Below are positions 1,253-33,593 of a DNA stretch of 64,000 bases, in pieces (the stretch's first letter is position 1; every line of letters starts with the position of its first letter). The stretch is from Candidatus Firestoneibacteriota bacterium (GTDB taxonomy: Bacteria > Oederibacteriota > D2-FULL-39-29 > JBBTED01). The notes under the pieces were generated by a model, which ran no database searches, was not told the DNA's origin, and worked only from the letters and a program-made list of their open reading frames with translations. The position numbers were made by a program, and so were the translations under genes. Location: positions 1 to 64,000 of the forward strand of contig JBBTED010000067.1 in NCBI GenBank assembly GCA_038042445.1, read 5' to 3'.

Positions 1253-2359
1253 ATGGCAAAGGTAATAATTAAGAATGTTTCTAAAATCTTCTCTGGCAAT
1301 CCAAAGCCAGCTGTTGATAGTGTAAATATTGAAATAGAAGATAAAGAATTTGTTGTTTTGGTAGGTCCATCTGGTTGTGGAAAATCCACTACTTTACGTA
1401 TGGTGGCTGGTTTGGAAGATATAACATCAGGTGAAATATATATAGGTGACAGGTTAGTTAATGATGTTCCTCCGAAAGATAGAGATATAGCAATGGTTTT
1501 TCAGAATTATGCTTTATATCCTCATATGACAGTTTATGATAATATGGCATTTGGATTGAAACTAAGAAAATATCCAAAAAAAGAAATAGATGAAAGAGTA
1601 AAAGAAGCTGCAGAAATTCTTGGAATACAGGAATTATTGCATAGAAAGCCAAAAGCATTATCAGGCGGACAACGTCAAAGAGTGGCTGTAGGTCGTGCAA
1701 TAGTAAGAAAACCAAAAGTATTTTTATTTGATGAACCACTTTCAAATTTGGATGCAAAGATGCGAGTGCAAATGAGAGCTGAAATTATAAAATTGCATAA
1801 CAGACTTCAGGCTACTATGATGTATGTTACACATGATCAGGTTGAAGCAATGACAATGGGCAATAGGATAGTAGTTATGAAAGACGGTTTAGTGCATCAA
1901 ATAGGTGAACCGGTAAAAGTATATGACAAACCACAAAATAAATTTGTAGCAGGTTTTATAGGTAGTCCTGCAATGAATTTTTTTGATGGTACTCTTGAGA
2001 AAAAAGATGGTCAAATATTATTTAATGAAGGCATGATTACAGTTGCTATACCAGAGAATTTTATTCCTATTACCGAGAATTATGTAGGCAAAGAAGTAGT
2101 GCTTGGAATAAGACCTGAACATATAAATGATAGTGTGCTGATTACAAATCCAAAAGAGGGGTGGATAGTTCCTTCTATAGTTGAGGTTGTGGAACCAATA
2201 GGTGCAGAGGCTTATGTTTATTTTACTACAGGCAAAAATCCGTTTATTGCTATTGTTGAGGTGCATGATGCCATTAAGGTGAATCAGAAAGTTCAAATAC
2301 ATTTTGATATGAATAAATCGCATCTATTTGAAAAAGAAAGCGAAAAATCTATTTTCTAA
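1253..2359 (+). CDS. Carbohydrate ABC transporter ATP-binding protein (UgpC/MalK/MsmX type)
   Basis: Walker [18 protein letters not shown] signature, [12 protein letters not shown]-terminal OB/TOBE region; AGGAGG RBS. Confidence 0.95.
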
Positions 2360-2363
2360 AAAA

Positions 2364-3344
2364 ATGAGTCCGAATATTGCCTATGCTGTAGGTGTGGATT
2401 TTGGTGGTACAAATATAGTAGCAGGTATAGTAAATTCTAAAGGTAAAGTTGTTGCACGTATAAAAATACCTACTTGTGCAAAAGAAGGAAAAGCAAAAGT
2501 TCTTAATCGTATTTCACTTGCAATAAAAGAAGTTCTTGAAAAATTCAAAGGTGGCATAGGAAAAATAAAAGGAATAGGTATAGGTTCGCCTGGGCTTATA
2601 GATCACATTAGAGGGATAGTAAATGTTCCTCCAAATCTTCCAGGGTGGAAACATGTTAATTTAAAAAAATATTTAGAGGCAAAATTTCACAAACCTGTTT
2701 TTGTTGCAAACGATGTAAATGCAACTGCTTTGGGAGAAAGTGAATTTGGTGCTGGAAAAGGAGTTAAAAATCTAATTTGTATAACATTAGGAACAGGAGT
2801 TGGTGGTGCTATAATAATAAATGGTAAGCTTTATGTTGGAAGCCATCAATTTGCAGGTGAAATAGGTCATATGACAGTAGAAAGACACGGTTTAAGATGT
2901 AACTGTGGTAATATAGGGTGTATGGAAAGATATGTGGGATGTGGTTTTATCGCGGAAAGGGCAATGGCTGAGATAAAAAAAGGAGTGCAAACTAAAATTA
3001 CAGAACTTGTTGATGGAGATTTGGATAAAATAACGCCAAAAATTCTAACTGATGCTGCAAAATTGGGAGATAAATTGGCATTAAAAATATGGAATGAAAC
3101 AGGAGAATATCTTGGCATAACTCTTGCCAGTGTTGTGAACTTTTTAGACCCTGAGATGATAATAGTGGGTGGTGGAGTAGCACAAGCAGGCAAATATATA
3201 TTTGAGCCAACTAAAAGAGAAATTAGAAAACGCGCATATAAGTTTTTAACAAAAAGTCTAAAAATAGTGCCAGCTAAACTTGGAGAAGATGCAGGTGTTA
3301 TTGGTTCGGCGACATTAGTGTTAAAAAATAAGGGGGCGATGTAA
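2364..3344 (+). CDS. ROK family sugar kinase (glucokinase-like)
   Basis: GVDFGGT, NDVNATALGE, TLGTGVGG, GEIGH and CxCGxxGC motifs. Confidence 0.92.
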   Translation: MSPNIAYAVGVDFGGTNIVAGIVNSKGKVVARIKIPTCAKEGKAKVLNRISLAIKEVLEKFKGGIGKIKGIGIGSPGLIDHIRGIVNVPPNLPGWKHVNLKKYLEAKFHKPVFVANDVNATALGESEFGAGKGVKNLICITLGTGVGGAIIINGKLYVGSHQFAGEIGHMTVERHGLRCNCGNIGCMERYVGCGFIAERAMAEIKKGVQTKITELVDGDLDKITPKILTDAAKLGDKLALKIWNETGEYLGITLASVVNFLDPEMIIVGGGVAQAGKYIFEPTKREIRKRAYKFLTKSLKIVPAKLGEDAGVIGSATLVLKNKGAM

Positions 3345-4064
3345 ATGAAAAAATGTAAGATTTTAAGTCTGGTTTTAATTGTAGGGTTATTTCCTGCTAT
3401 GTCTTGGGCTTCAGATGTATATTCACTTGATACAGTAGATATGCCTACAGCTAATACAATGTTAAAAGGAATGTATAATTTTACACTTAAAATTTATGAA
3501 GGTGGAGGTATTGCAACAAAGGGATGGGTTAGTTTTGCTAATAGTTTTATGGTAGGAGCTTCATTTAATTTGGAAAATGTGGTAGGTAGAGGTGAGGTTA
3601 AAGGCAGAGAGCCAAAGCTTATTGCTAGATTGCGGTTTATAAATGAATCTGCGGGTTTACCGGCTTTTTCACTTGGATATGAGCCTCAGGGATATGGAGT
3701 GTTTGATGAAGCTATAGGTGAATATTCAAGTAAACCAATAGGTTTATATGTTGTTGCAAGCAAAACAATTTCGTTTTTTGAAGGATTACAGTATAGTGTA
3801 GGTGCAGGTAACAGAAATGTATTTAAAGATTTTCAGGCTTCAAAAAATCTTGATATATTTTTAGGTGGAAGTTTATCTTTAACAAATGAACTTGCTCTGT
3901 TAGCTGAATATGATGATATTTTCAAAGATACAAATATTTTTAATTTTGGAGTTCGATTTGCATTTTCCTCAAATTTAACACTGGAACTAGATTTCAAAAA
4001 TCTTACCAAGGGGATTCAAGAAAATACACGAACACTTCGTATACACTATACGGATTCATTTTAA
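3345..4064 (+). CDS. Secreted putative outer-membrane beta-barrel protein (YjbH-like)
   Basis: Signal peptide, DMPTAxxL start, alternating beta-strand pattern, terminal Phe. Confidence 0.6.
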   Translation: MKKCKILSLVLIVGLFPAMSWASDVYSLDTVDMPTANTMLKGMYNFTLKIYEGGGIATKGWVSFANSFMVGASFNLENVVGRGEVKGREPKLIARLRFINESAGLPAFSLGYEPQGYGVFDEAIGEYSSKPIGLYVVASKTISFFEGLQYSVGAGNRNVFKDFQASKNLDIFLGGSLSLTNELALLAEYDDIFKDTNIFNFGVRFAFSSNLTLELDFKNLTKGIQENTRTLRIHYTDSF

Positions 4065-9308: not shown

Positions 9309-10244
9309 GTGGTAAAAGTTAAAATGATTTTAGGGTTGTTTGCAGCAAGTTTTTTGGTTTGTACGCAAGTAGTTTGTGCAGAAGAATCTACAATGCAGAC
9401 TACAAATGTGCAAAAAGAAGGGCAAGCAGAACAAGGTGTTGTAGTTCCTGCACAAATAAATAGTGCAGAGCCTTTAACACTTGAACAGGTTGCAAATGTG
9501 GAAAAAGAAGGCCAGATGGAACTTGGGATAACAGATATTAGTTATGGTTATCAGAAATATACTACATCAGGAGTTACAGGTGAAAATACCTTTACAGATA
9601 TTAGAGTTCCGCTATTTGTCCGATATGGAATTATGTCTGATTTAGAGATAAAATTACTTGTTCCATATAGAAGTACAAAGTTTACGACTACACAGATAGG
9701 GGTGTCGGAAAGTAGTAATAGTGGGTTAGGTCAGGTATCAATAGGATTAAAATATAATCTTATTCCTGAATCCGATGATGTTCCCGGTATTTCAATTTCT
9801 GCAAGTTCTGAACTTCCAACTGCTGATGCAAAAAAATATCTTGGTACTGGCACAAATGTTTATGGAACTTTAATTATAGGAAAAGCAATAGAAGGTATTA
9901 ATGTTAATTTGAATGCAGGTTATGGTTATACAGGAGAATTTACAAATGCTTCTGATGCAAAACAGAATAATGGAGATGTTATTTACGGTGGATTAGCAAT
10001 AGGTTGTTCTATAGATGAATTTACTCCAATAATAGAAATTTCTGGAACCACAATCGGTAAAGCAAAAGTATCTGGAACTGAATATGCTACAAATGGAAAT
10101 ACTTTTGATGCTATTGCTGGTTTGCGGTACAAAATGGATGATTTAAAACTAAAATTAGGTTTTGTATATGCGCTTGGAGATGCTACTTATACAAGTTATA
10201 CATGGAAAGCTATTGGTGGAGCAACATATTTATTTAATTTGTAA
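9309..10244 (+). CDS. Outer-membrane beta-barrel transporter (phenol meta-degradation/Pput2725-like)
   Basis: Signal peptide; VRYGI...LLVPY, GLGQVSIGLKY, ELPT strands; ends YLFNL. Confidence 0.6.
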   Translation: MVKVKMILGLFAASFLVCTQVVCAEESTMQTTNVQKEGQAEQGVVVPAQINSAEPLTLEQVANVEKEGQMELGITDISYGYQKYTTSGVTGENTFTDIRVPLFVRYGIMSDLEIKLLVPYRSTKFTTTQIGVSESSNSGLGQVSIGLKYNLIPESDDVPGISISASSELPTADAKKYLGTGTNVYGTLIIGKAIEGINVNLNAGYGYTGEFTNASDAKQNNGDVIYGGLAIGCSIDEFTPIIEISGTTIGKAKVSGTEYATNGNTFDAIAGLRYKMDDLKLKLGFVYALGDATYTSYTWKAIGGATYLFNL

Positions 10245-10255
10245 ATAATAATTTT

Positions 10256-10279
10256 GTCATGCTGAATTTATTTCAGCAT
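10256..10279. repeat. GTCATGCTGAA-type REP
   Basis: gtcatgctgaatttatttcagcat; second copy at 32862-32887. Confidence 0.75.
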
Positions 10280-10302
10280 TTATAACAGGAGGTGGGTAAA
10301 AT

Positions 10303-11526
10303 ATGATTAGAAAATATGAAGCATTGGCGATATTAGGATGTTTTGTTATTTTCGCAGGTGTATTGATTGGTTGTGGAGCTAAAGAAAAGAAAAATCTTAC
10401 AGGTTCTACAGCTAGCAGTATTACTACGACTGGTGGTGGCGGTGGTACAACTGGTGGTACAGCTACATCACAAACTACAAGTCAGGCTGCTGCGTCTGCT
10501 ACAAATACAGGTGTTGACAGTTTGACGAGTGTTAAAACTGCGTTATCACAGCTTAGTGGTTCAAGTCCGTGACAAGCTCCAAGATATGCTTTTGCACCTA
10601 TATTGAAAAATGGTGCACCATTTTTAGCTACAGCAGAGTGGGTAAAGCCAACAAAAGATGCAGATGGATACTATGTGTTACCTTCTTATACAGCTCCTGA
10701 TGGAACTGTGTTTCAACAGTTAGTTAAGCCAGATCCAGATTGGTGGGCAATGTGGGATAATGTTGATGCTACAAGTAAGCCAACTATGCCTTGGGATCTT
10801 TTAAATGAGAATGATGATTTTACATCAACATTTAGTATGAAAGGTAGTTTTGATGGTCCGGATGCAATTGGAGCAATGACAATGGTAAACAAAGAAATTA
10901 AAAAAGTAAAAGTGTATTCTTTTACTTTTACATATTCATATCCTAGCTGGAATGAAGAAACACAAAAGATGGTAATGGTAGAAACAACAAGTGTTTCTAC
11001 ATGGAAAGGTCTTGATTGGGACAACTTTACATCAAGTATAACTGGAAGCGGTAAAACAACGAATAAGAAAGATAGTTCATGGATGGAATTTACTATGACA
11101 GGCACAGGAACACATACAGGGGTTCCGGTAAAAGATGCAAATGGATTTCAAACAGGTGGTACATTTACAGAAAAGCAGACAGAAACAATGAATTTTACAA
11201 TGTCTTCCGGGTATTCCGGAAAATTTGATATGTCTGTTGAGGCTTCTGGTAGTTGGAATCAGGCTACTGGTGGTTCAGGTATAGGCAAAGGAACAATTAC
11301 AGGTTCTATCTATTATCAGGGGACCGAGATCTGCAGAATATATGCAACAGGTCAGGGTGAGAGCAAGGAAACTGCCACAGTTGAAGGATATTACACTTTA
11401 GCGGATGATGGCTTTGTAACTAAATATCCAATGGAAGAAGATGATATAAAGGCTATCATTATTGGACCAGGTGGTGGAAAAAGCAAAGCAAGTATAAAAA
11501 TGAGTGTGATTAAACCCCAAAATTAA
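10303..11526 (+). pseudogene. Lipoprotein reading frame interrupted by a single in-frame TGA (10570-10572)
   Basis: ORFs 10303..10572 and 10603..11526 share a frame and the intervening codons are open (QAPRYAFAPI). Lipobox LIGC and strong RBS before 10303; no RBS before 10603. Confidence 0.65.
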
Positions 11527-24085: not shown

Positions 24086-24263
24086 CTTGCTACAGGGTTA
24101 CAATATTTTGTCATGCCCGAATGTAGTAATCGGGCATCCAGAGTCTTGTTTTATCAATGTTTTAAAGACACTGGATTCCCGATAGAAACATTCGGGAATG
24201 ACGGTATTACTTAAGTATTTTTTAGTTTTTGGATACCCCGTAGCTTGCTACGGGGAGGTTCAT
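24078..24263. mobile_element. Non-autonomous element with IS200/IS605-like end hairpins enclosing a REP doublet
   Basis: ccctatagcttgctacaggg (left) and accccgtagcttgctacggggaggttcat (right) flank a 93-bp GTCAT doublet (24110-24202); no transposase ORF. Confidence 0.55.
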
Positions 24264-24362
24264 TTTATATGATAATAAAACAAAATGTTATTTTAAAATT
24301 CGGGGTAAGTTCAGTGTCCCACGAATTATAAATGTAAAGATGCAACATTTGAAGCAAGTGAT

Positions 24363-25001
24363 ATGGCAGAACAATTAAAAAGTGAAATAGGAAAAGGTTT
24401 TGAAGATGTATTTATGAAAAAAAGTCTAAAAATTTTTGGGTTTATTCTTGGTGGCATTGTAGGTATTATATTTACCAAACTTTTTTTATTGAAGTCCTAT
24501 GAAGATGAAAAAAAGAATGAGAAATTGACAGAGAAAGAAGAAGAAAAAAAGTTACATCAATTAGATGATTACTATGATGATTATATTCGAAGAAGAGATG
24601 AATTTAATAAAATTAGATCAGATACTATGGATTCGGTTGATAAAATAATATTGACTTTATCAACTGGTACATTAGTTCTATCAATTACATTTTTAGATAA
24701 AATTGGAAAACCTATCAATTATTCTTTTATTTTAGTATGTTCATGGTGTTTTTTAATGGTTTCTCTCTTACTAAATATTCTTAGTTTTATATTTGCAAGA
24801 ATAAATATAGAAAACAAAATTCAGGATTTGGATGATAAATACGAAGAACGTAAAGAAGATAAGAAATATTTTGTTGAAAAAAACTTTATTTGGGAAAAGT
24901 GGACTGATTTTTGTAATTATTTTGCTTTATTTTCATTTCTTATAGGTATTATTAGTTTTTTTATTTATGCATTAATAATTATATTTGATAATTGTAAATA
25001 G
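24363..25001 (+). CDS. Hypothetical membrane protein
   Basis: About 4 hydrophobic segments, DKIILTLSTGTLVLSITFL; start may be 24414. Confidence 0.65.
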   Translation: MAEQLKSEIGKGFEDVFMKKSLKIFGFILGGIVGIIFTKLFLLKSYEDEKKNEKLTEKEEEKKLHQLDDYYDDYIRRRDEFNKIRSDTMDSVDKIILTLSTGTLVLSITFLDKIGKPINYSFILVCSWCFLMVSLLLNILSFIFARINIENKIQDLDDKYEERKEDKKYFVEKNFIWEKWTDFCNYFALFSFLIGIISFFIYALIIIFDNCK

Positions 25002-25015
25002 AATGGAGGTGCATT

Positions 25016-25072
25016 ATGGCCAGTAAAAAAACAGGTGGGAAAACACCATCTAAACCACCTAAAAAGAAATAA
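25016..25072 (+). CDS. Putative 18-aa basic microprotein MASKKTGGKTPSKPPKKK
   Basis: GGAGGT RBS 5 nt before ATG; below the ORF-track cutoff. Confidence 0.45.
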   Translation: MASKKTGGKTPSKPPKKK

Positions 25073-25109
25073 AATTTTTATATGTTTATGAATTAGGAGA
25101 TATAAAATT

Positions 25110-25507
25110 ATGGAAATAGAAATTAGTGATAATTTTGGAGTAAATGGTGGACTGCATTATGGAACACCTGTAAATGTTGTAAGAGAACTTAAAGCAATAT
25201 GGAATATTACAGCACGAGTATCTGAAGAGATAAGGAATAAAAGTGTTGATGATTGGGCAAAAGATATAAGGGAACATATGCCGTTTTTAAATTGTTGGTA
25301 TGAAAAATTATTAAAAGAGAAAAACATCCTTTTTCAAATGAATTAATGACTATTTTTGCACTTGCTTATGGCGAGCCAAACTATCAATGGGTAAGTATTC
25401 AGAATATTATATGGGATGATGGTTCCACTACTACAAGGGATGATTTACTTAGAATGCAATTGGATGAAGAAAAATTCAATAATTTACAGAGATTAGGTTT
25501 AATATAG
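25110..25507 (+). pseudogene. Hypothetical protein, probably split by a frameshift (25110..25346 plus 25346..25507)
   Basis: AGGAG RBS; one extra T in the T5 run at 25330-25334 would join the 78-aa and 53-aa ORFs. Two coupled genes (TAATG overlap) is the alternative. Confidence 0.4.
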
Positions 25508-25533
25508 TTTTGAAATTTAAAAAGAATAAAGAA

Positions 25534-26097
25534 ATGGATAATTTAAAAGATATTTATATTAGTTATTTCAATCAGATGAGAGATGGTGAATCAAATATTT
25601 TCAAATTTCTCACTACACTTTTTACTGCTATTGGAGGATTTTATATTGTTGTTAAAAATAATGTTGTTGAAAATAATTTAGATTGGTTATTGTTTTCAGC
25701 AATTGGATCTACTATTGTACTTATATGGGGAATTCTTTATGTTTTATCAATAGGTTATACGCATAGATATTTGCAGGTAATAATGTGGTATTATGAAAAT
25801 AAATTAAAATTACCCAATTTCAAATCTTGGGATCCAAAAAAATTTAAAAAGTTGAAAGTATGCCAAAGCTTATTATTAGAACCTACTCCGGGAATTTATA
25901 AAATCCATCTTATAGGATTTATTATGGGAATTATGTTAGTTTGGTATTGGTACGGATTTTTAAAAAATAACAACCATATTGGTTGTGTGATTATACTATT
26001 TCTTATTGTGTGGTTGCTTACTGCTTGTTTAAATTATTACTATATGAACAAACTAAAAAAAATAATTGAAAAAGGAATTAATAATGATAAAACTTAA
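25534..26097 (+). CDS. Hypothetical membrane protein
   Basis: 4 predicted TM segments. Confidence 0.6.
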   Translation: MDNLKDIYISYFNQMRDGESNIFKFLTTLFTAIGGFYIVVKNNVVENNLDWLLFSAIGSTIVLIWGILYVLSIGYTHRYLQVIMWYYENKLKLPNFKSWDPKKFKKLKVCQSLLLEPTPGIYKIHLIGFIMGIMLVWYWYGFLKNNNHIGCVIILFLIVWLLTACLNYYYMNKLKKIIEKGINNDKT

Positions 26098-28789
26098 TAA
26101 ATTTTTTAAAATTATTTTTATAGTAATAGTTTATAGTATAATTAACGATTTTACATATACTTATGCTGTAACTTATACATTAGACAGCACAGGAAATGTT
26201 GGAGGGTATAACTCTATAGCCATAGACAGTAATAACAAAGTTCATATTGGTTATTATGATGTTACAAATGGAGATTTAAAATACGCAACGAATATATCTG
26301 GTTCATGGGTAACATCTACTTTGGATAGTTCAGGAACTGTTGGATGGTGGAGCTCTATAGCCATAGACAGTAATAACAAAGTTCATATTGGTTATTATGA
26401 TGCTACAAATGGAGATTTAAAATACGCAACGAATATATCTGGTTCTTGGGTAACATCTACTTTGGATAGTTCAGGAACTGTTGGATGGTATAACTCTATA
26501 GCCATAGACAGTAATAACAAAGTTCATATTAGTTATATGGATTATACAAATGCAGATTTAAAATACGCAACAAATACATCTGGTTCTTGGGTATATACAA
26601 CATTAGATGATATTGGAAGTAGTTTAGATGGTTCTCAAAACCGTACTTCAATCACAATAGATAGTAATAATAAAGTCCATATTAGTTATGCTATGGGTTT
26701 TGGTGGTAATTTAAAATATGCAACAAATACATCAGGTAGTTGGGTGTGTATATCATTAGGTATAGGATTTACTTCTTCAATAGCCATAGACAATAATAAT
26801 AAAGTTTATATAAGTTATAATGGGACAGATTTAAGATATGGTACAAACGCATCTGGTAGTTGGGTGACATCAACATTAGATAGTGCGTTCTCAAATTCTT
26901 TCATAGCGATAGATAACAATAACAAGATTCATATAAGTTGTTTTGATAGTACAAATGCAGATTTAAAATATGTTACAAATGCTGGTAATACAGCACCAAC
27001 ATTATCATGGACAGGCGAGGCAAATTATACTTCAGATGGAATAAATCCAGAAATAGGAAACACAAGTTCAACATTTATATACAGGATTAAATATACCGAT
27101 ACTGATAATGATGCACCGGCGAGTGGGTATCCAAAGGTGCATATTAAGAAAGCAGGAGTTGAAATAAGCGGTAGTCCATTTACAATGAGTTATGTAAGTG
27201 GAAGTTATAGCACAGGAGCAATTTATACATATTCTAAAACATTAAGTTCTTTGGGAACTGACTACACATATTATTTTGAAGCGCAGGATGTGTGGAATGA
27301 AGTAGCAACAGGCACGCCAACAATCGCTGTTGATTCTCCTGATGTCAATAATGCTCCTGCATTATCTTGGACCGGTGAGACAAATTATGTATCTGACGGG
27401 TTAGATCCGCATACAGGAAATACAGCAATAACATTTACATACAGAGTGAAGTATACGGATGCTGATGCTTTAGCAAGTGGATATCCAAAAGTTCATATTA
27501 AAAAAGCAGGAAGTGAAATATCTGGTAGTCCATTCACAATGACTTATGTAAGTGGAACATATTCAGGCGGAGCGATTTACACTTATTCTAAAATACTTTC
27601 TACCGTTGGAATTGACTATACATATTATTTTGAGGCACAGGATGTATATAACGAAGTAGCAACTGGAATACCAACAACATCAGTAGATGCTCCTGATGTT
27701 TCTGCTATTCCTCTTATTTCTCCAAATACAGCACCCATTTTTTCCTGGACAGGTGAAACAAATTATACGGCTAATGGGATTTATCCTACTTTAGGAAATG
27801 CGAGTACTACTTTTGTTTTTAGGGTGAAATATACGGATGCAGATAATGATGCTCCTGCATCAGGATATCCTAAATTGTATATTAAAAAAGGTGGTGTAGA
27901 AATTTCTGGTAGTCCGTTTGCTATGGTGACAGTAGATAGTAGTTTGTATTCAGCAGGTCCAATTTATACTTATTCTACGGTTTTAACTAAATCAGGTGCT
28001 GATTATACTTATTATTTTGAGGCGAAAGATGTATTAAATGGTCTTGCAACAGGAATACCTACAAATCCTTTTGATGCACCTGATGTTAATGTAATTCAGG
28101 CAAATCAAGATACCAATATAGTAAGTGAAGACGGAACCAGTATTGATATTCCAAAGGATACACTAAATCCAGGAGTTGCAATTAACATCACTATTCCTTC
28201 TGTTATTCCTGAAGGAGAAGTCCAAAATGCAGGATATTCAGTTAAGCAGACAAATATAACAAGAGAAATAACTACATCAGATGGGAGTAAAAATTTTAAT
28301 AAGGAAATAAAAATATCTATTCCATTTAAAGATTCTGATGTTGCTGGAATAAATAAACAAAACCTGAAATTATTCTATTATTCTGAAGAAAGGAAAATGT
28401 GGATTTTAATTCCATCTGCTGTAGTTGATACTAATAAAAATACAATTTCTATATTAGTTACACATTTGACAATTTTTAGGATAATGGCACTTGAGCCAAC
28501 ATCAGCAGTATTAGTTTTATATAACAATTTGTTTGACCCTGCAAATAATGAAAAATTATATGTTCGTTATGATATTGTGCAAGAAGTAGATGTTACAGTT
28601 ACTGTGTATAGCATCAAGGGGCAAAAGATAAAAGAATTATTTAATGGTAGAAAAACTGCTGGTAGTTACACTGATTTAACCTGGGATGGCAAGAATGAAG
28701 ATGGAGAGGTTGTAGCAAGTGGTATTTATGTTGTGTATATTTCTGCAGGGGATTTTAGAGATAAGAAAAAAGTGGTGGTGGTGAAATGA
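26084..28789 (+). CDS. Large secreted repeat protein: beta-propeller-like repeats, three repeated ~120-aa domains, ZU5-like region, C-terminal FlgD-Ig/T9SS-like sorting domain
   Basis: Signal peptide; SIAIDSNNKVHI..Y.....DLKYATN repeats; 3x AP.LSWTGE.NY...YTYYFEA.D; C-terminus VYSIKGQKIKEL...WDGKNEDGEVVASGIY...KKVVVVK. Confidence 0.85.
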   Translation: MIKLNKFFKIIFIVIVYSIINDFTYTYAVTYTLDSTGNVGGYNSIAIDSNNKVHIGYYDVTNGDLKYATNISGSWVTSTLDSSGTVGWWSSIAIDSNNKVHIGYYDATNGDLKYATNISGSWVTSTLDSSGTVGWYNSIAIDSNNKVHISYMDYTNADLKYATNTSGSWVYTTLDDIGSSLDGSQNRTSITIDSNNKVHISYAMGFGGNLKYATNTSGSWVCISLGIGFTSSIAIDNNNKVYISYNGTDLRYGTNASGSWVTSTLDSAFSNSFIAIDNNNKIHISCFDSTNADLKYVTNAGNTAPTLSWTGEANYTSDGINPEIGNTSSTFIYRIKYTDTDNDAPASGYPKVHIKKAGVEISGSPFTMSYVSGSYSTGAIYTYSKTLSSLGTDYTYYFEAQDVWNEVATGTPTIAVDSPDVNNAPALSWTGETNYVSDGLDPHTGNTAITFTYRVKYTDADALASGYPKVHIKKAGSEISGSPFTMTYVSGTYSGGAIYTYSKILSTVGIDYTYYFEAQDVYNEVATGIPTTSVDAPDVSAIPLISPNTAPIFSWTGETNYTANGIYPTLGNASTTFVFRVKYTDADNDAPASGYPKLYIKKGGVEISGSPFAMVTVDSSLYSAGPIYTYSTVLTKSGADYTYYFEAKDVLNGLATGIPTNPFDAPDVNVIQANQDTNIVSEDGTSIDIPKDTLNPGVAINITIPSVIPEGEVQNAGYSVKQTNITREITTSDGSKNFNKEIKISIPFKDSDVAGINKQNLKLFYYSEERKMWILIPSAVVDTNKNTISILVTHLTIFRIMALEPTSAVLVLYNNLFDPANNEKLYVRYDIVQEVDVTVTVYSIKGQKIKELFNGRKTAGSYTDLTWDGKNEDGEVVASGIYVVYISAGDFRDKKKVVVVK
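26177..26975 (+). repeat. 141-bp (47-aa) intragenic tandem repeat; 3 near-identical and about 3 diverged copies
   Basis: Units start at 26177, 26318, 26459 and 26600. Confidence 0.9.
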
Positions 28790-31755
28790 GAGAAAAATGG
28801 ATTCCCGCTTTCGCGGGAATGACAGAATGTAGTGGAAATTCTCGCAGGCTAAAGCCTGCGGCTACAACTACATTGTTTGTAATGATGATTTTTATTTTGC
28901 CTGTTTTGTGTAATGCAGGGGTGGGAACAACTGGGGGTGTGTTTCTTGAGGATTCTGTAGGTGCAAGACCTTATGGTATGGGTTCTGCATTTTCTGCTAT
29001 TGCTGATGATGCAAATAGTATCTATTCAAATCCTGCTGGTTTTCATTATCTTGCCTATCCTGAAATAACAACAATGTATAATAAAGCATTGATGGATACT
29101 TCATTAAGTTATATTGGGTATATTCATCCTTATGAAAATATCGGAACTTTTTCCGGGTCATTTTTATTATTTGATGGTGGAGATATAGAGCTGAATTATT
29201 TAGATAGCACAAGTGAAAAAGTGAAGGCAGGCCAGGATTGGGCCGTAACTTTAGGATATGGCAGATCTATAGGGAATTCAGAAATATTTTTTGGTGGGGC
29301 TAATATAAAATTGGTACGTAGCACATTGGTAAATAAATATTCTGCAATAGCAATAGCGATGGATGCAGGATTGTTGTATCGCACAATTGATAATAAGCTT
29401 TCAATTAGTTTAGCATTTCAAAATTTAGGTACGAAGTTGAAATATAAAAATATAGGTGATTCTCTTCCTTTTACTTCTAAATTTGGAGTTGCCTATAGAA
29501 TTTTAGAGCTTGAAGGACATTCAGTATTACTTGCAGGAGATTTTTCTCTTAATTTTGTAAAGAAAAATATTGGAGTTGAATATTGGGTAATGCAAATGTT
29601 CGCATTAAGACTTGGTGCAAAATTGGGATATAATCCAAATAGCTATACTATGGGTTTCGGGATAAATGTTTTTTCTGATACAAAATTGGATTATGGATAT
29701 TCTCCAATGATAGATGAAACAACGCATAGGATTTCGTTATCATTTAAGTTTGGTTCACAGGATAAAATTACACTTGCTGATAAATACGAAGAAAAAGGAA
29801 TGTATGCACGTGCGCAATATATCCGCAATCCAGATGATTATATGTACGCAAAGGCAAATACAATAAAAGAAAAAGATGGATTTATACCTATTATAACATC
29901 AATAGAGCCAAAGAAAGCAGGTCCGGGAACGGAAATTAAAATATTCGGAGAAAAATTTGGGAAATATAGCAATGTAACAATAGGAGATGTTTTTGCAGAG
30001 GTTATAAAATCAGAAGAAAAAAGAATAATAGCGAAAGTGCCGAATATAAAAGCTGGAGAATCAGAAGTAGTTGTGCAGACAGACAAAGGGGTTTCACTTT
30101 CAAAAACATTATCAGTGATGCCATCAAAACCAGCAATGCTTGAAGTTTCAGAAATAACATTTAAAGATGAGAATCAAGATAATATTTTGGGAGCAGAGGA
30201 AACCGGAAACATAATAATAACAGTTAAAAATCAGAAGGGTGCTGGAGAGTCGTTTGGAGTGAAGGTTAAACCAGTGTGTACTTCAGCAAAGAATGATCTG
30301 TTTTTTGATAATGAAATAAATATAGGAAATATTGGTTCTGGAGAAGAGAGAAAAGTTGAAATTCCAGTTAAAGCTGGATTAGATTTAACAACAGGCAAAG
30401 CGAGTTTTAAATTGAGTTTTACTGAAGCGAATGAATATAATCCAGATCCAGTGAACATAACATTTGATACACATAAATTAGAGCCGCCTGATATAGAATT
30501 AGCGAAATTTGAGATAGACGATGGAATGTATCCATACAATCCGGAAAAATTAGCATCAGGAAATAACAATGGAATACTTGAACCCGGAGAACAAGTTGAA
30601 ATAAACGCAGTTATTGTAAACAAGGGAACAGGTCCAACAAAGAATGGAGTTGTAAAAGTTATTTGTTCTGATCCTAAAATCAATATTTCAAGTTTAAGTC
30701 AGAGTTTAGAGTTTGATTTAGGTAGTATAGAGCCGGAAAAATGGAAAGAAATAAAGTTTGCGATAGAAGTTAAAAAACAATATAAGGGTGAACAGAATCT
30801 GCCTGTAAAACTACAGTTCAGTGAAGCAAGAAAAATGTTTAACAAGGATTTGGCAATGAACATAGGATTAGGCAGGGTGTATGCAAAAACACAAGATGTT
30901 GTTATAAAAGGAAAATCGTTTGATATTGCTATTCCAACAATTACTTCTTTCGGAGATGATTTAATTAACATACCTGCTTATGCAACAACAGAAAAGAAGA
31001 ATGCTTATGCAGTAGTGGTCGGAATAGAAAAATACAGGGATGTGGTGTCAGCGGAATATGCGGCAAAGGACGCACAGTCAATAAGAGATTATTTAATTAG
31101 CGCAATGAAATTTAAAGAAGAGAATATTAGATTTGCTCTAAACGAAAGAGCAAGCAGGAATGATTTAATCAGATATTTCAATGTGGAGTTAAAGAACAAT
31201 GTTGAAAAGGATTCTTTGGTGTTTGTATATTATTCCGGGCATGGTGCCCCGGATGCAACAACAGGCGATACATACATCGTTCCTTATGACGGAGACCCGA
31301 ATACAATAAAAGACAGCGGGTATTCGTTAAAGCAGTTGTATGAGGTATTAAGCAAACTACCAACTAATAAAATATTGGTTGTGATAGACGCGTGTTTCAG
31401 CGGTGCAGGCGGAACAAGAACGCTTTTAGCAAAAGGAGCAAGACCATTAGTAGTGAGTAAGGATACAGATACCGGGAATGCGATAGCAATCACAGCAACA
31501 GGAGCAGGACAAATAAGCGGGACTTATGACGAGAAACAACACGGGTTATTTACATATTATTTTTTGAAAGGTATTCAGGGTGAAGCGGATATAAACAAAG
31601 ACAAGGAAATAATGTTAAGCGAGTTGTATGGATATTTAAAGCCAGAGGTTATAAGGAAAGCAAGAAAAGACAACAGGGACCAGGAACCGCAGATATTGCC
31701 ATCAGTTAATCAGATAGGTGAGTTTGAAAAATTACCATTAGCAATATTAAAATGA
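28786..31755 (+). CDS. PorV/PorQ-like (UPF0164) beta-barrel fused to IPT/TIG, Ig-like domains and a caspase-family (C14) peptidase
   Basis: GARPYGMGSAFSAIADDANSIYSNPAG and THRISLSFKFG bracket the barrel; ITSIEPKKAGPGTEIKIFGEKFG (IPT); AVVVGIEKY, YYSGHG, IDACFSG, HGLFTYYFLKG (caspase fold, His/Cys dyad intact). Confidence 0.88.
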   Translation: MREKWIPAFAGMTECSGNSRRLKPAATTTLFVMMIFILPVLCNAGVGTTGGVFLEDSVGARPYGMGSAFSAIADDANSIYSNPAGFHYLAYPEITTMYNKALMDTSLSYIGYIHPYENIGTFSGSFLLFDGGDIELNYLDSTSEKVKAGQDWAVTLGYGRSIGNSEIFFGGANIKLVRSTLVNKYSAIAIAMDAGLLYRTIDNKLSISLAFQNLGTKLKYKNIGDSLPFTSKFGVAYRILELEGHSVLLAGDFSLNFVKKNIGVEYWVMQMFALRLGAKLGYNPNSYTMGFGINVFSDTKLDYGYSPMIDETTHRISLSFKFGSQDKITLADKYEEKGMYARAQYIRNPDDYMYAKANTIKEKDGFIPIITSIEPKKAGPGTEIKIFGEKFGKYSNVTIGDVFAEVIKSEEKRIIAKVPNIKAGESEVVVQTDKGVSLSKTLSVMPSKPAMLEVSEITFKDENQDNILGAEETGNIIITVKNQKGAGESFGVKVKPVCTSAKNDLFFDNEINIGNIGSGEERKVEIPVKAGLDLTTGKASFKLSFTEANEYNPDPVNITFDTHKLEPPDIELAKFEIDDGMYPYNPEKLASGNNNGILEPGEQVEINAVIVNKGTGPTKNGVVKVICSDPKINISSLSQSLEFDLGSIEPEKWKEIKFAIEVKKQYKGEQNLPVKLQFSEARKMFNKDLAMNIGLGRVYAKTQDVVIKGKSFDIAIPTITSFGDDLINIPAYATTEKKNAYAVVVGIEKYRDVVSAEYAAKDAQSIRDYLISAMKFKEENIRFALNERASRNDLIRYFNVELKNNVEKDSLVFVYYSGHGAPDATTGDTYIVPYDGDPNTIKDSGYSLKQLYEVLSKLPTNKILVVIDACFSGAGGTRTLLAKGARPLVVSKDTDTGNAIAITATGAGQISGTYDEKQHGLFTYYFLKGIQGEADINKDKEIMLSELYGYLKPEVIRKARKDNRDQEPQILPSVNQIGEFEKLPLAILK

Positions 31756-32849
31756 GAAATAAAACGGTTTTGTCATTGCGAGTGAAACGAAGTAATCTTG
31801 GGATTTATCTAGTATTTTTTCTTGTTGTTGTTTTTTGTGGGTGTGCTACGACACCAAAGTCAAAACCGGATTTAAAAGATAAATCCGATAAACTTTTTCA
31901 GGAACTTGGAAAAGAAGAAACTCCGGATATTCAACAGAATAAAGAAATGAAACAGATGGAAAAGGAGTTGGATAAAACGCCCAATAAATCAGACCAAACA
32001 GTAGAACAAGCGTCTCGCTTGTCAGAACAACAGCCATCAATGGTAGGACAGCCGTCTCGGCTGTCAGAAGAAATTTCTTTTGAAGAAACAGGTGAAGGGT
32101 TCGCGTCAAAATACGAACGGAGAATAGAAGCAGAAAAACGTGCAGAGGAGAATGCTTTATCAAAAGCGCTAAAGAAAATAGGCACAGATGTTTTTGACAG
32201 TTTCAGCGATGCAATGGCTCAATCCGGAAAAACACAGTATCAGTTCGTTGCGAAATGTCTTTATATCGGCACAAGCGGATTAGTGTCTTATGAAAGAACT
32301 GGAGAGCCGATTTTTACAGAAGAGACAAATGGAACAAAGTGCGTTCTTAAAATAAAAGGCACGGTTTATTCAAAAGGTAAGCCAGACCCTTCTTATGGGG
32401 TTAAAATAGATAAGAATTCCGGGATGGATAAACTGATTTATAATTCCGGGGATGAAGTCCAACTAAAATTTTCTGTTACAAAGGATTCACATATAACTAT
32501 TTTAAATATTGATGAGGAAAAGAACGTTTATCTGATTTATCCAAATAAGTTTGTTAAGGGAAATATACTGAAAGCAGGAGAAAGTTTTGAAATACCGGGT
32601 AACTTGGGAATAAAAATGCAGGCAGTATTACAGGAAGGAAAGAGCGAAACAGTTGAATTACTATACATAATCGCAACAAAAACCAATTCGTTGTTTTTAT
32701 CTGAGGATAGCAAAGAGATTCTTTTATCAACAGATTACACATTGTTTTCAATCGGAGAATTTAAAAGGGCTATGGAACGGATTGGAAAACTTAATCGTGA
32801 TGAGTGGACAATGATTGTTTTGCCATATACGATAGTAAAAGGTAAATAG
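31752..32849 (+). CDS. Lipoprotein with C-terminal DUF4384-like domain
   Basis: Lipobox FCGC; YNSGDEVQLKFSVTKDSHITILNID...YLIYPN pattern. Confidence 0.7.
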   Translation: MRNKTVLSLRVKRSNLGIYLVFFLVVVFCGCATTPKSKPDLKDKSDKLFQELGKEETPDIQQNKEMKQMEKELDKTPNKSDQTVEQASRLSEQQPSMVGQPSRLSEEISFEETGEGFASKYERRIEAEKRAEENALSKALKKIGTDVFDSFSDAMAQSGKTQYQFVAKCLYIGTSGLVSYERTGEPIFTEETNGTKCVLKIKGTVYSKGKPDPSYGVKIDKNSGMDKLIYNSGDEVQLKFSVTKDSHITILNIDEEKNVYLIYPNKFVKGNILKAGESFEIPGNLGIKMQAVLQEGKSETVELLYIIATKTNSLFLSEDSKEILLSTDYTLFSIGEFKRAMERIGKLNRDEWTMIVLPYTIVKGK

Positions 32850-32861
32850 TTTATAGAATAT

Positions 32862-32950
32862 GTTATGCTGAATTCATTTCAGCATCTGTAGGGGTGGATT
32901 TATCCGACCAGATATTGTAGTTGTTTTGTAGTTGCCGACTTTGGTTGGCA
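32862..32950. repeat. Cluster of three different REP units
   Basis: gttatgctgaattcatttcagcatct, gtaggggtggatttatccgacc, gtagttgccgactttggttggca. Confidence 0.7.
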
Positions 32951-32965
32951 AAGGAGGAAAAGAAA

Positions 32966-33523
32966 ATGGGAAAAGGTAATGTAGTCGCTCAATTTATTGA
33001 GCATAAGGTAGTTGCAAAGATTGGTTTGCTGATTGTTTTAGCAGTATTTGTTATAGTTGGTTGTGCATCAATGAAACCAATGTGGGTGGATAAAGGAAGT
33101 GCTGCGTTTGAGAAAGGCAAAGAAAAGGTGTTTTATGGTGTTGGCACAGCGAGTGCTGAAATTAAAGACAAAGCATTAAGAATAGAAACAGCGGATAACA
33201 GAGCAAGAGCGAGTTTACAGAAGATATTTGACACATATACAGCGTATTTAATGAAGGATTATCAGGGACAGGACGGAGTAGTTGTTGAAAGGGCTGTAAA
33301 AACATTTGCTGCTGGGAATTTATCTGGAGTTGAAATAACAGACCATTTTACTGAAAGCGATGGCACAATATATTCTTTAGCGAAACTTGATTTAGAGACA
33401 TTCAAGCAGGCAATGGAAATGGCAAAGGAAGTTAGTACTATAGCAAAGGAACATTTGCAAAAGAAAGCAGATGTTATGTTCTCTGAATTAGAAAAAGAAG
33501 AAGAAAAAAGAGGAGCAAAGTAA
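32966..33523 (+). CDS. LPP20-like lipoprotein
   Basis: AAGGAGG RBS before ATG 32966, lipobox IVGC, KPMWV..G...FYGVG.A....TADNRARA. Confidence 0.75.
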   Translation: MGKGNVVAQFIEHKVVAKIGLLIVLAVFVIVGCASMKPMWVDKGSAAFEKGKEKVFYGVGTASAEIKDKALRIETADNRARASLQKIFDTYTAYLMKDYQGQDGVVVERAVKTFAAGNLSGVEITDHFTESDGTIYSLAKLDLETFKQAMEMAKEVSTIAKEHLQKKADVMFSELEKEEEKRGAK

Positions 33524-33565: not shown

Positions 33566-33593
33566 GTAGGGAACAGGATTATCTGTTCCCTAC
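33566..33593. repeat. GTAGGGAACAG...CTGTTCCCTAC palindrome
   Basis: Perfect 11-bp arms with GTAG/CTAC ends; may also act as a terminator. Confidence 0.7.

Follow-up and report, generated by a model that had tools for sequence, protein, structure and literature searches.

In the 64,000-nucleotide stretch of contig JBBTED010000067.1 analysed here (positions 1 to 64,000, hereafter the window; assembly GCA_038042445.1, Candidatus Firestoneibacteriota bacterium), four genes follow one another on the forward strand between positions 26066 and 33523 (Table 1). The source is an uncultured groundwater bacterium whose genome is 90% complete. A sequence-only reading of the window had described these genes as a co-oriented envelope module: a secreted protein, an outer-membrane barrel like PorV from type IX secretion systems (T9SS) fused to a caspase, and two lipoproteins. 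The ORF calls agree with that layout, and the ATGA overlaps of four bases that were said to join the first three genes can be read in the sequence at 28786-28789 (genes 1 and 2) and 31752-31755 (genes 2 and 3). We believe, with a probability of roughly 60%, that the locus consists of two separately conserved envelope modules that have become fused, giving a periplasmic protease tethered to the outer membrane with DUF4384 and LPP20 proteins as its partners.

Table 1. Features of the four-gene locus, in window coordinates (bit scores are followed by the cut-off; CTD, C-terminal domain; RBS, ribosome-binding site).
Feature	Position	Strand	Description and basis
Gene 1, secreted surface-protein candidate ("cargo")	26066 (TTG) or 26084 (ATG)..28789	+	ORF calls; 907 aa from TTG
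Gene 1 CTD, FlgD-Ig-like / T9SS type-A-like	28550..28780	+	PF13860 and TIGR04183
Gene 2, PorV/PorQ-family barrel, helical linker, TIG, two beta-sandwich domains, hinge, C14 caspase	28786..31755	+	989 aa
Two palindromic repeat elements in the signal-peptide coding part of gene 2	28797..28866		blastn, alignment, depth
14-strand FadL/PorV-type outer-membrane barrel	28927..29751	+	aa 48-322; NF033709, AlphaFold2, Foldseek, VIA-align
Three-helix linker	29764..29877	+	aa 327-364; helices in model, conserved alignment block
Stalk: IPT/TIG and two further beta-sandwich domains	29887..30855	+	aa 368-445 and aa 452-690; HMM and model
Peptidase C14 (caspase / orthocaspase-like)	31006..31695	+	aa 741-970; PF00656, 55.4 bits (21.4)
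Gene 3, lipoprotein	31752..32849	+	365 aa; lipobox Cys31 (...FCGC/A); LPP20/FlgT_N-like and DUF4384
Gene 4, probable LPP20-family lipoprotein	32966..33523	+	185 aa from ATG; lipobox Cys33 (...IVGC/A); RBS and start read
Hairpin, 11-bp stem	33566..33593		43 nt 3' of the gene 4 stop; pattern scan, consensus match only

Gene 2 carries the fusion. Its N-terminal part matches the PorV/PorQ family model NF033709 over the whole profile (154.4 bits against a cut-off of 90; positions 1-326 of 326), but it stays below the equivalog cut-offs of PorV (NF033710, 52.5 against 250 bits) and PorQ (NF033711, 85.6 against 220 bits). A library search with residues 45-345 returned 9816 representative proteins at E <= 0.001. 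For the structure we used AlphaFold2 on residues 40-365 aligned with 75 short relatives (an alignment of 76 sequences), which gave a model with a pLDDT of 95.1 and a pTM of 0.90. PorV ranks first when this model is searched with Foldseek (8gl6_F at E 3.4e-15 and TMq 0.73, 6h3i_F at E 1.1e-13). With VIA-align, PorV 8gl6_F scores Z 33.6 with an rmsd of 3.5 over 283 residues, 6h3i_F scores Z 33.1 and FadL Z 29.7, while classical autotransporter translocators reach only Z 12-13; intimin-type barrels were not among the compared structures. Family score and fold thus both confirm the PorV-like barrel that had been proposed from the letters. Our first AlphaFold2 model, of all 989 residues from 8 sequences, had a mean pLDDT of 60, with fair beta-sandwiches and caspase and a poor barrel; with that model as query, Foldseek hits were confined to chains of Ig domains, as in integrins and the like, and were uninformative. 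Chains of Bacteroidota BAM complexes (9n2d_B, 9hjm_F and 9hiv_F) also match the barrel model, at Z 24-25, so FadL/PorV-like barrels belong to those BAM assemblies as well.

The stalk behind the linker starts with a TIG domain (PF01833, 37.3 bits, residues 368-439). Residues 452-680 match the middle part of TIGR03900 and have a strand pattern at pLDDT 70-89 in the full-length model; in relatives, CARDB is found at the position of the stalk. Where the sequence-only reading spoke of IPT/Ig spacers, the IPT holds as a single TIG domain, and the remaining spacers are two further beta-sandwich domains. A hinge of low model confidence (residues 700-731) precedes the caspase. Here the catalytic His819 (CAT at 31240-31242, motif YSGHG) and Cys870 (TGT at 31393-31395, motif DACFSG) are both present, as had been claimed, and both are invariant across 8 aligned rows representing 7 different proteins, so that the domain is active-looking as judged from its residues. 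In a profile search against the PDB it matches metacaspase-4, Yca1 and MALT1 and neither gingipain nor PorU, and gene 2 has no match to the PorU model NF033707 at E <= 0.01. PADLOC reports the generic caspase model and no other defence-system match.

The palindromic elements near the start of gene 2 are GC-rich and inserted in frame, adding about 28 residues relative to one of the related proteins (P0005). They give 90 blastn hits genome-wide, covering two blocks, and read depth spikes at 28734-28850 in 4/4 metagenome runs.

Gene 1 had been described as a secreted repeat protein with an end like that of FlgD-Ig or T9SS sorting domains, and the scores bear this out. The ATG start chosen in that description is present in the sequence. 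Its product is built from a signal peptide, propeller-like repeats of about 47 aa, three Ig-like repeats of about 115 aa and a C-terminal sorting-type domain; at the nucleotide level there is a tandem repeat of 141 nt in 2.9 copies at 26190-26593. The CTD matches FlgD_ig (PF13860) with 35.2 bits against a cut-off of 27, and the T9SS type A model TIGR04183 marginally, with 24.2 bits against 23. The other type A model, PF18962, has no match to gene 1 at E <= 0.01, and FlgD provides the sole PDB sequence matches to the CTD.

For genes 3 and 4, the lipoprotein assignments (DUF4384-like and LPP20-like) stand, the one through its own HMM score and the other, as a probable one, by way of its family. 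Gene 3 has a low-complexity tether (residues ~35-110), an LPP20/FlgT_N-like domain (residues ~111-220, 32082-32411), the DUF4384 domain (32439-32684; PF14326, 54.8 bits against 27, residues 230-311) and a conserved C-terminal part. Gene 4 itself is under the LPP20 cut-off (PF02169, 16.3 against 25.9 bits). In its family, however, LPP20 is found at E <= 0.01 in 20/22 aligned members (best 1.1e-8), and a single structure row in the Atlas reaches the threshold for LPP20; the gene has 438 homologues at E <= 0.001. The two lipoproteins probably have an LPP20-like domain in common, because hhalign aligns the N-domain of gene 3 to the gene 4 family (79% probability, E 1.6e-5, 60 columns) and relatives of gene 3 match FlgT_N or LPP20 in Pfam. 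The lipobox cysteine, read by eye, is conserved in most long-form rows of the gene 3 family and invariant in the gene 4 family. Gene 4 could also start at a TTG at 32921, but the ATG is the more likely start as it follows an AAGGAGG-like site. PDB sequence searches with genes 3 and 4 gave nothing meaningful. The 5' end of gene 3, in the signal-peptide region, shows a depth spike at 31776-31892 in 4/4 runs, up to ~720 against a local ~9. This stretch has 2 blastn hits in the genome and is probably a repeat that is common in the community.

A fusion of this kind could be an artefact of assembly. We considered a chimera at ~29.8 kb and rejected it on three grounds. Six other 90% clusters (P0002-P0007) have the full architecture of gene 2, with 45-53% identity over 96-97% of the protein. 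The fusion also occurs in a second species genome of the phylum (G008). Finally, public contigs from groundwater runs of two studies span 29525-29906 or more, which covers the junction of barrel and TIG domain, with 0 differences. The fusion is therefore not unique to this assembly, but it is rare, with about ten protein clusters seen. Across the 99 species genomes of the phylum, PorV-like barrels are present in 99/99 and the full fusion in 2/99, which are this genome and G008. When the barrel-TIG junction was searched for in 185,579 species genomes, only the G008 contig and one weak fragment of 57 residues came up. Among the best 150 representatives there are more distant fusions with the orders barrel-TPR-TIG-caspase (P0151), barrel-TIG-caspase (P0170) and barrel-CARDB-caspase (P0267); in P0154 the caspase part is visible by BLAST only.

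The sequence-only reading depended on the genes occurring together elsewhere, and G008 keeps the order cargo, barrel-caspase, DUF4384 and LPP20-like, with a different cargo body. Its locus begins with a cargo of 449 aa (fn3 and FlgD_ig) and a barrel-TIG-caspase protein of 974 aa. These are followed by an exported protein of 208 aa without a family, two TIG-caspase lipoproteins (671 and 795 aa), a DUF4384 lipoprotein (370 aa), an LPP20-like lipoprotein (179 aa) and a WD40 Ser/Thr kinase. On the minus strand of that locus (L025), the kinase and the 208-aa protein are at 2114-3541 and 9856-10482. In the protein clusters, relatives of genes 3 and 4 lie on longest contigs of equal size, and some of these sizes equal those of gene 2 relatives too (363642, 11846, 10238, 3733, 10916 and 9122). 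The equal sizes suggest that the relatives of genes 2, 3 and 4 are co-located in other genomes.

The barrel and its cargo are one copy of a unit that is frequent in this genome. There are 26 matches to the PorV family model NF033709 (12 above cut-off) and, after merging of matches, 27 distinct CTD-like sites. Of these 27 sites, 14 are followed in the same orientation by a PorV-family barrel that starts at most 750 nt downstream; 4 others have a barrel upstream within 8 kb, and 9 have none. Counted by barrels, 14 of the 26 matches are paired with an upstream CTD site. Over the 14 pairs, the similarity of the CTDs tracks that of the adjacent barrels (Mantel r 0.86, a value that 0/5000 permutations reach; r 0.815 without contig C170). 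Cargo-barrel pairs also stand in tandem arrays on three contigs (C63, C44 and C11), with up to five PorV-family matches on C63 and cargo of 1000-1400 aa, and on C112 a cargo of 5123 aa lies beside a barrel-TPR protein.

What follows the barrel varies. Fifty-five of the best 150 barrel relatives are at least 420 aa long, and the C-terminal parts of 46 long relatives contain TPR (18), CsgG/LpoB/TolB_N/FlgO-like domains (10), OmpA (4), CarboxypepD_reg (3), caspase (3) and PEGA (1). The long copies in this genome end in LysM, TPR or CsgG/LpoB-like domains. OmpA and LysM bind peptidoglycan, and since relatives carry them there, the C-terminal extension of this barrel family is predicted to be periplasmic. 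It is mainly because of such periplasmic-type domains at the same position in related barrels that we place the caspase in the periplasm.

Such an exchange is seen on contig C170 (7.8 kb), which is collinear with the window from 23.1 to 29.9 kb (83-88% nucleotide identity). The cargo encoded there shares 82% identity with the gene 1 product over 624 aa. Its barrel and linker follow gene 2 to about residue 365, and by BLASTP the identity stops just past the linker; there a CsgG/LpoB-like domain replaces TIG, Ig and caspase. The two forms have similar read depth over the barrel in the metagenome runs. C170 is either a second, paralogous locus or this very locus as carried by a co-binned relative; whichever is the case, one cargo-barrel unit exists with two different modules on its presumed periplasmic side.

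The second module is the caspase together with its DUF4384 partner. Caspase and DUF4384 each have one match in this genome, and the two matches are adjacent. In the phylum the caspase is present in 10/99 genomes and DUF4384 in 9/99, and in all 7 genomes with both, the two are within ~1.3 kb on one strand. We also looked at 74 metagenomic caspase loci, which were chosen by caspase similarity and many of which are short. A gene-3-like ORF adjoins the caspase gene or genes in 16 of them, and the partner was confirmed in 9/9 loci sent to Pfam. In these nine, the DUF4384 protein is 271-294 aa long and adjoins one to three caspases in tandem, except that one locus has an LPP20+DUF4384 protein of 424 aa and one has a fused caspase-DUF4384 protein. 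The caspase heads are ankyrin, PDZ-S41, thioredoxin, DUF2846 or none recognised. Most of these caspases begin with a lipobox, and their partners have a plain signal peptide, which makes the cassette probably extracytoplasmic. The barrel-caspase fusion was seen in 0/74 of these loci, although the scan, made with the full-length alignment, was swamped by caspase motifs. A quick tree built from 72 caspase domains divides the fusion proteins between two clades and nests the two lipoprotein caspases of G008 beside the G008 fusion (SH-aLRT 100). Because they nest within a fusion clade, the tree suggests that the barrel anchor and the lipid anchor are interchangeable for this caspase clade.

Association with DUF4384 is on record for cyanobacterial orthocaspases (PMC7475262). 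Another source (bioRxiv 10.1101/2022.08.17.504292) describes a DUF4384-type domain as the C-terminal domain of Csx30, the substrate of the caspase-like Csx29, and DUF4384 as often fused to proteases. The gene 2 clade resembles the orthocaspases of PMC7475262 in its His-Cys dyad and in the DUF4384 association; unlike them, it is exported (by lipobox or barrel) and has a separate LPP20-like + DUF4384 partner. Gene 4 and the N-domain of gene 3 are like LPP20 of Helicobacter (PF02169) and the FlgT_N/CsgG/LpoB-like domains in their family matches, but unlike LPP20 in that gene 4 itself is sub-cut-off and that our data give no tie to flagella or curli.

How far this is a T9SS depends on the rest of the genome. 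In Bacteroidota, PorV and PorQ hold PorU and PorZ at the cell surface, and PorU is a clan CD cysteine peptidase that is held by PorV and removes CTDs. SprA was one of the components that the sequence-only reading proposed to look for, and a homologue is present: the SprA/Sov model TIGR04189 matches a protein of 1742 aa on contig C87 (225.9 bits against 200). For PorKLMN, the other part of that proposal, the outcome was different. GldL, GldM and GldN (PorL/M/N) have no match in this 90%-complete genome, but no control genome matched either and their absence is not established; PorK (GldK) has generic partial matches only (69.8 against 350 bits). The PorU model NF033707 matched only the CTD tail, from at least position 954 of 1095, in 21 places of the genome, and no PorU body was found. 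The system is best called T9SS-like and not canonical: it has a homologue of the translocon and numerous carrier barrels and CTD proteins, and shows no sign of a motor or sortase. The SprA/Sov homologue (L027, 2882-10499, minus strand) is immediately preceded by an ABC ATPase and a PF16949 protein, which form an ABC transporter pair; the C87 translocon, without GldL/M/N found, suggests that the phylum has a T9SS-like translocon without the known motor.

Compared with PorV and PorQ (6H3I; 8GL6 chain F), gene 2 shares the NF033709 family, the 14-strand FadL-like fold and a place beside a gene for a CTD-bearing secreted protein, in a genome that has an SprA/Sov homologue. It differs in its scores below the equivalog cut-offs, in the 26 family matches per genome, in its C-terminal extension of 660 residues and in the non-Bacteroidota phylum; PorL/M/N and the PorU body were not found here, in searches that had no positive control. 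Another comparison is with PorP/SprF, PorE and type B cargo. As described in PMC9143113, type B CTD proteins of Bacteroidota bind PorP-like barrels encoded beside them, and PorP itself binds PorE, a lipoprotein of the periplasm with TPR, beta-propeller, carboxypeptidase-regulatory-like and OmpA-like domains. The likeness lies in a surface CTD protein, an adjacent barrel and a periplasmic multi-domain module, and in the PorE-type domains (TPR, CarboxypepD_reg, OmpA) on relatives of the gene 2 barrel. Here, in contrast, the module is fused to the barrel and is not a separate lipoprotein, it is a protease and not a cell-wall anchor, the barrel belongs to the PorV/PorQ family, and the CTD is FlgD-Ig / type-A-like.

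If the locus works as two joined modules, its parts are most likely arranged as follows. The product of gene 1 would be exported by Sec, and its CTD would be held on the surface by the gene 2 barrel, in the way that PorV and PorQ hold PorU and PorZ and that PorP-like barrels hold type B cargo in Bacteroidota. The chain would leave the barrel on the periplasmic side and continue through the three-helix linker, a stalk of ~330 residues and a flexible hinge into the caspase, with the barrel taking the place of the lipid anchor of the closest caspase relatives. The caspase would then be suspended under the outer membrane, close enough to reach the lipoproteins of genes 3 and 4, and the tether of gene 3, with ~75 residues of low complexity, could let this protein reach the protease. 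We presume that the gene 3 protein most likely, and the gene 4 protein perhaps, either is cut by the caspase or controls it. The conserved pairing with the caspase argues that the DUF4384 protein is a substrate, inhibitor or adaptor. The second module would thus consist of a membrane-anchored C14 protease and an LPP20-like/DUF4384 partner, to which an extra LPP20-family lipoprotein would have been added here. A coupling from cargo to protease across the membrane is conceivable.

The sequence-only reading saw in the four genes one dedicated machine, with the cargo outside and the caspase probably in the periplasm. The anatomy of that proposal stands and the topology is probable, while the proposed sensing across the membrane reaches further than the results do; a periplasmic caspase fits with the periplasmic-type domains on related barrels and with the closest caspase relatives being lipoproteins. 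Two independent modules fit better than a single four-part machine, because the cargo differs in G008 and the caspase-DUF4384 pair is widespread without a barrel. Some points weigh against our reading all the same. The periplasmic topology rests on analogy, namely that known even-stranded barrels have their termini in the periplasm. The difference in cargo between the two genomes makes a specific functional tie between cargo and caspase doubtful. Duplication of whole pairs can give the Mantel signal, and two near-identical pairs dominate it. The 16/74 is neither a rate nor unbiased, given how the loci were chosen, and the caspase tree is a quick one.

A dedicated sensor across the outer membrane would relay the state of the cargo (ligand, loss or phage attack) through the barrel, and the caspase would cut the lipoproteins as a signal, in conflict or in cell death. 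The covalent link of carrier and protease and the four-gene order conserved in two genomes speak for this, and so do the tandem arrays formed by the caspase clade, whose heads vary (ankyrin, TPR, WD40 or PDZ) in a manner known from conflict systems; a WD40 Ser/Thr kinase gene also ends the G008 locus. Further support comes from two other sources: the CTD of PorA binds PorY, so that periplasmic signalling by a CTD protein is known (PMC12152298), and the Csx30-Csx29 pair offers a DUF4384-type substrate (bioRxiv 10.1101/2022.08.17.504292). We nevertheless consider the sensor unlikely. The defence search gave only a generic caspase model, the neighbouring genes are of the housekeeping kind (murA, for example), the cargo is not conserved, and most caspase-DUF4384 cassettes have no barrel. 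Moreover, on C170 this cargo and barrel come with a CsgG/LpoB-like module where gene 2 has the caspase, and no relay mechanism through a PorV-type barrel is known. In a more specific form, the occupancy or integrity of the cargo would switch the tethered caspase, which would cleave the DUF4384 and LPP20 lipoproteins to remodel or breach the envelope. We judge this quite unlikely; if it were true, such a trans-envelope switch would be a periplasmic counterpart of caspase-based bacterial immunity and programmed death, wired to a surface receptor.

The caspase could instead be a processing enzyme like PorU that trims the CTD or the pro-part of the gene 1 protein. C14 and C25 peptidases share clan CD, the cargo gene is directly upstream, and the only NF033707 matches in the genome are to the CTD tail, leaving the PorU body unaccounted for. 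We hold this to be very unlikely. A general sortase cannot be absent from most genomes that have the barrels, and the fusion is in 2/99 genomes of the phylum and any caspase in 10/99, against barrels in 99/99. The PDB profile search groups the domain with metacaspases, the caspase clade travels with DUF4384 and not with CTD cargo, and the periplasm is the wrong side for processing of the PorU type. The stalk and caspase might also pass to the outside, by way of the barrel or alongside it, in the manner of inverse autotransporters, with the caspase acting outside the cell. The order of barrel, Ig-like domains and enzyme does resemble intimin and invasin, surface proteins often contain TIG and CARDB-like domains, and lipoproteins are surface-exposed in some phyla. 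Display at the surface seems highly improbable to us, as the fold is of the FadL/PorV type (Z 33.6 against 12-13 for the classical autotransporter translocators compared), related barrels have OmpA, LysM or LpoB/TolB_N-like domains at the same position, and the partners have a plain signal peptide or lipobox and no CTD. We therefore keep to the reading of two fused modules with the protease below the outer membrane.

Each of the two modules is common elsewhere and the two are rarely fused; both are recurrent and uncharacterised. PorV-type carrier barrels, known only from the T9SS of Bacteroidota, turn out to be a large modular family, as the 26 matches here, the 99/99 genomes and the 9816 representatives indicate. 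The periplasmic end of the barrel may serve to dock swappable modules: anchors to the cell wall, TPR and CsgG/LpoB-like domains and, in rare cases, a protease. The other module suggests that exported caspases with a membrane anchor form a widespread family, whose fixed partner is an LPP20-like + DUF4384 protein. To our knowledge, bacterial caspases are discussed almost only as cytoplasmic enzymes. In the open full-text literature, which leaves subscription journals uncovered, we found nothing about fusions of PorV with a caspase, about components of a T9SS in Firestonebacteria or Elusimicrobia, or about periplasmic lipoprotein or barrel-anchored caspases. The fused form would fix the place of the enzyme (under the outer membrane and beside a known cargo) and offer candidate partners, which opens the roles of periplasmic caspases and DUF4384 proteins to experiment. 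The general results, modular barrels and exported caspases, may matter more than the single fusion.

The boundaries that the sequence-only reading set for the module are reasonable, because a hairpin follows gene 4 and then comes a gene for a murA-type enzyme, while the ORFs upstream have no family. The hairpin is a candidate operon end, judged by its pattern. A scan for promoter patterns found 37 against 41 expected, which is not above chance. Two ORFs upstream of gene 1 (24363-25001 and 25510-26097, the latter likely a membrane protein) match no family and lie in a part of the window, 24100-26100, that has 27% GC. This stretch, with both of these ORFs, is missing from the collinear contig C170 and may be an insertion.

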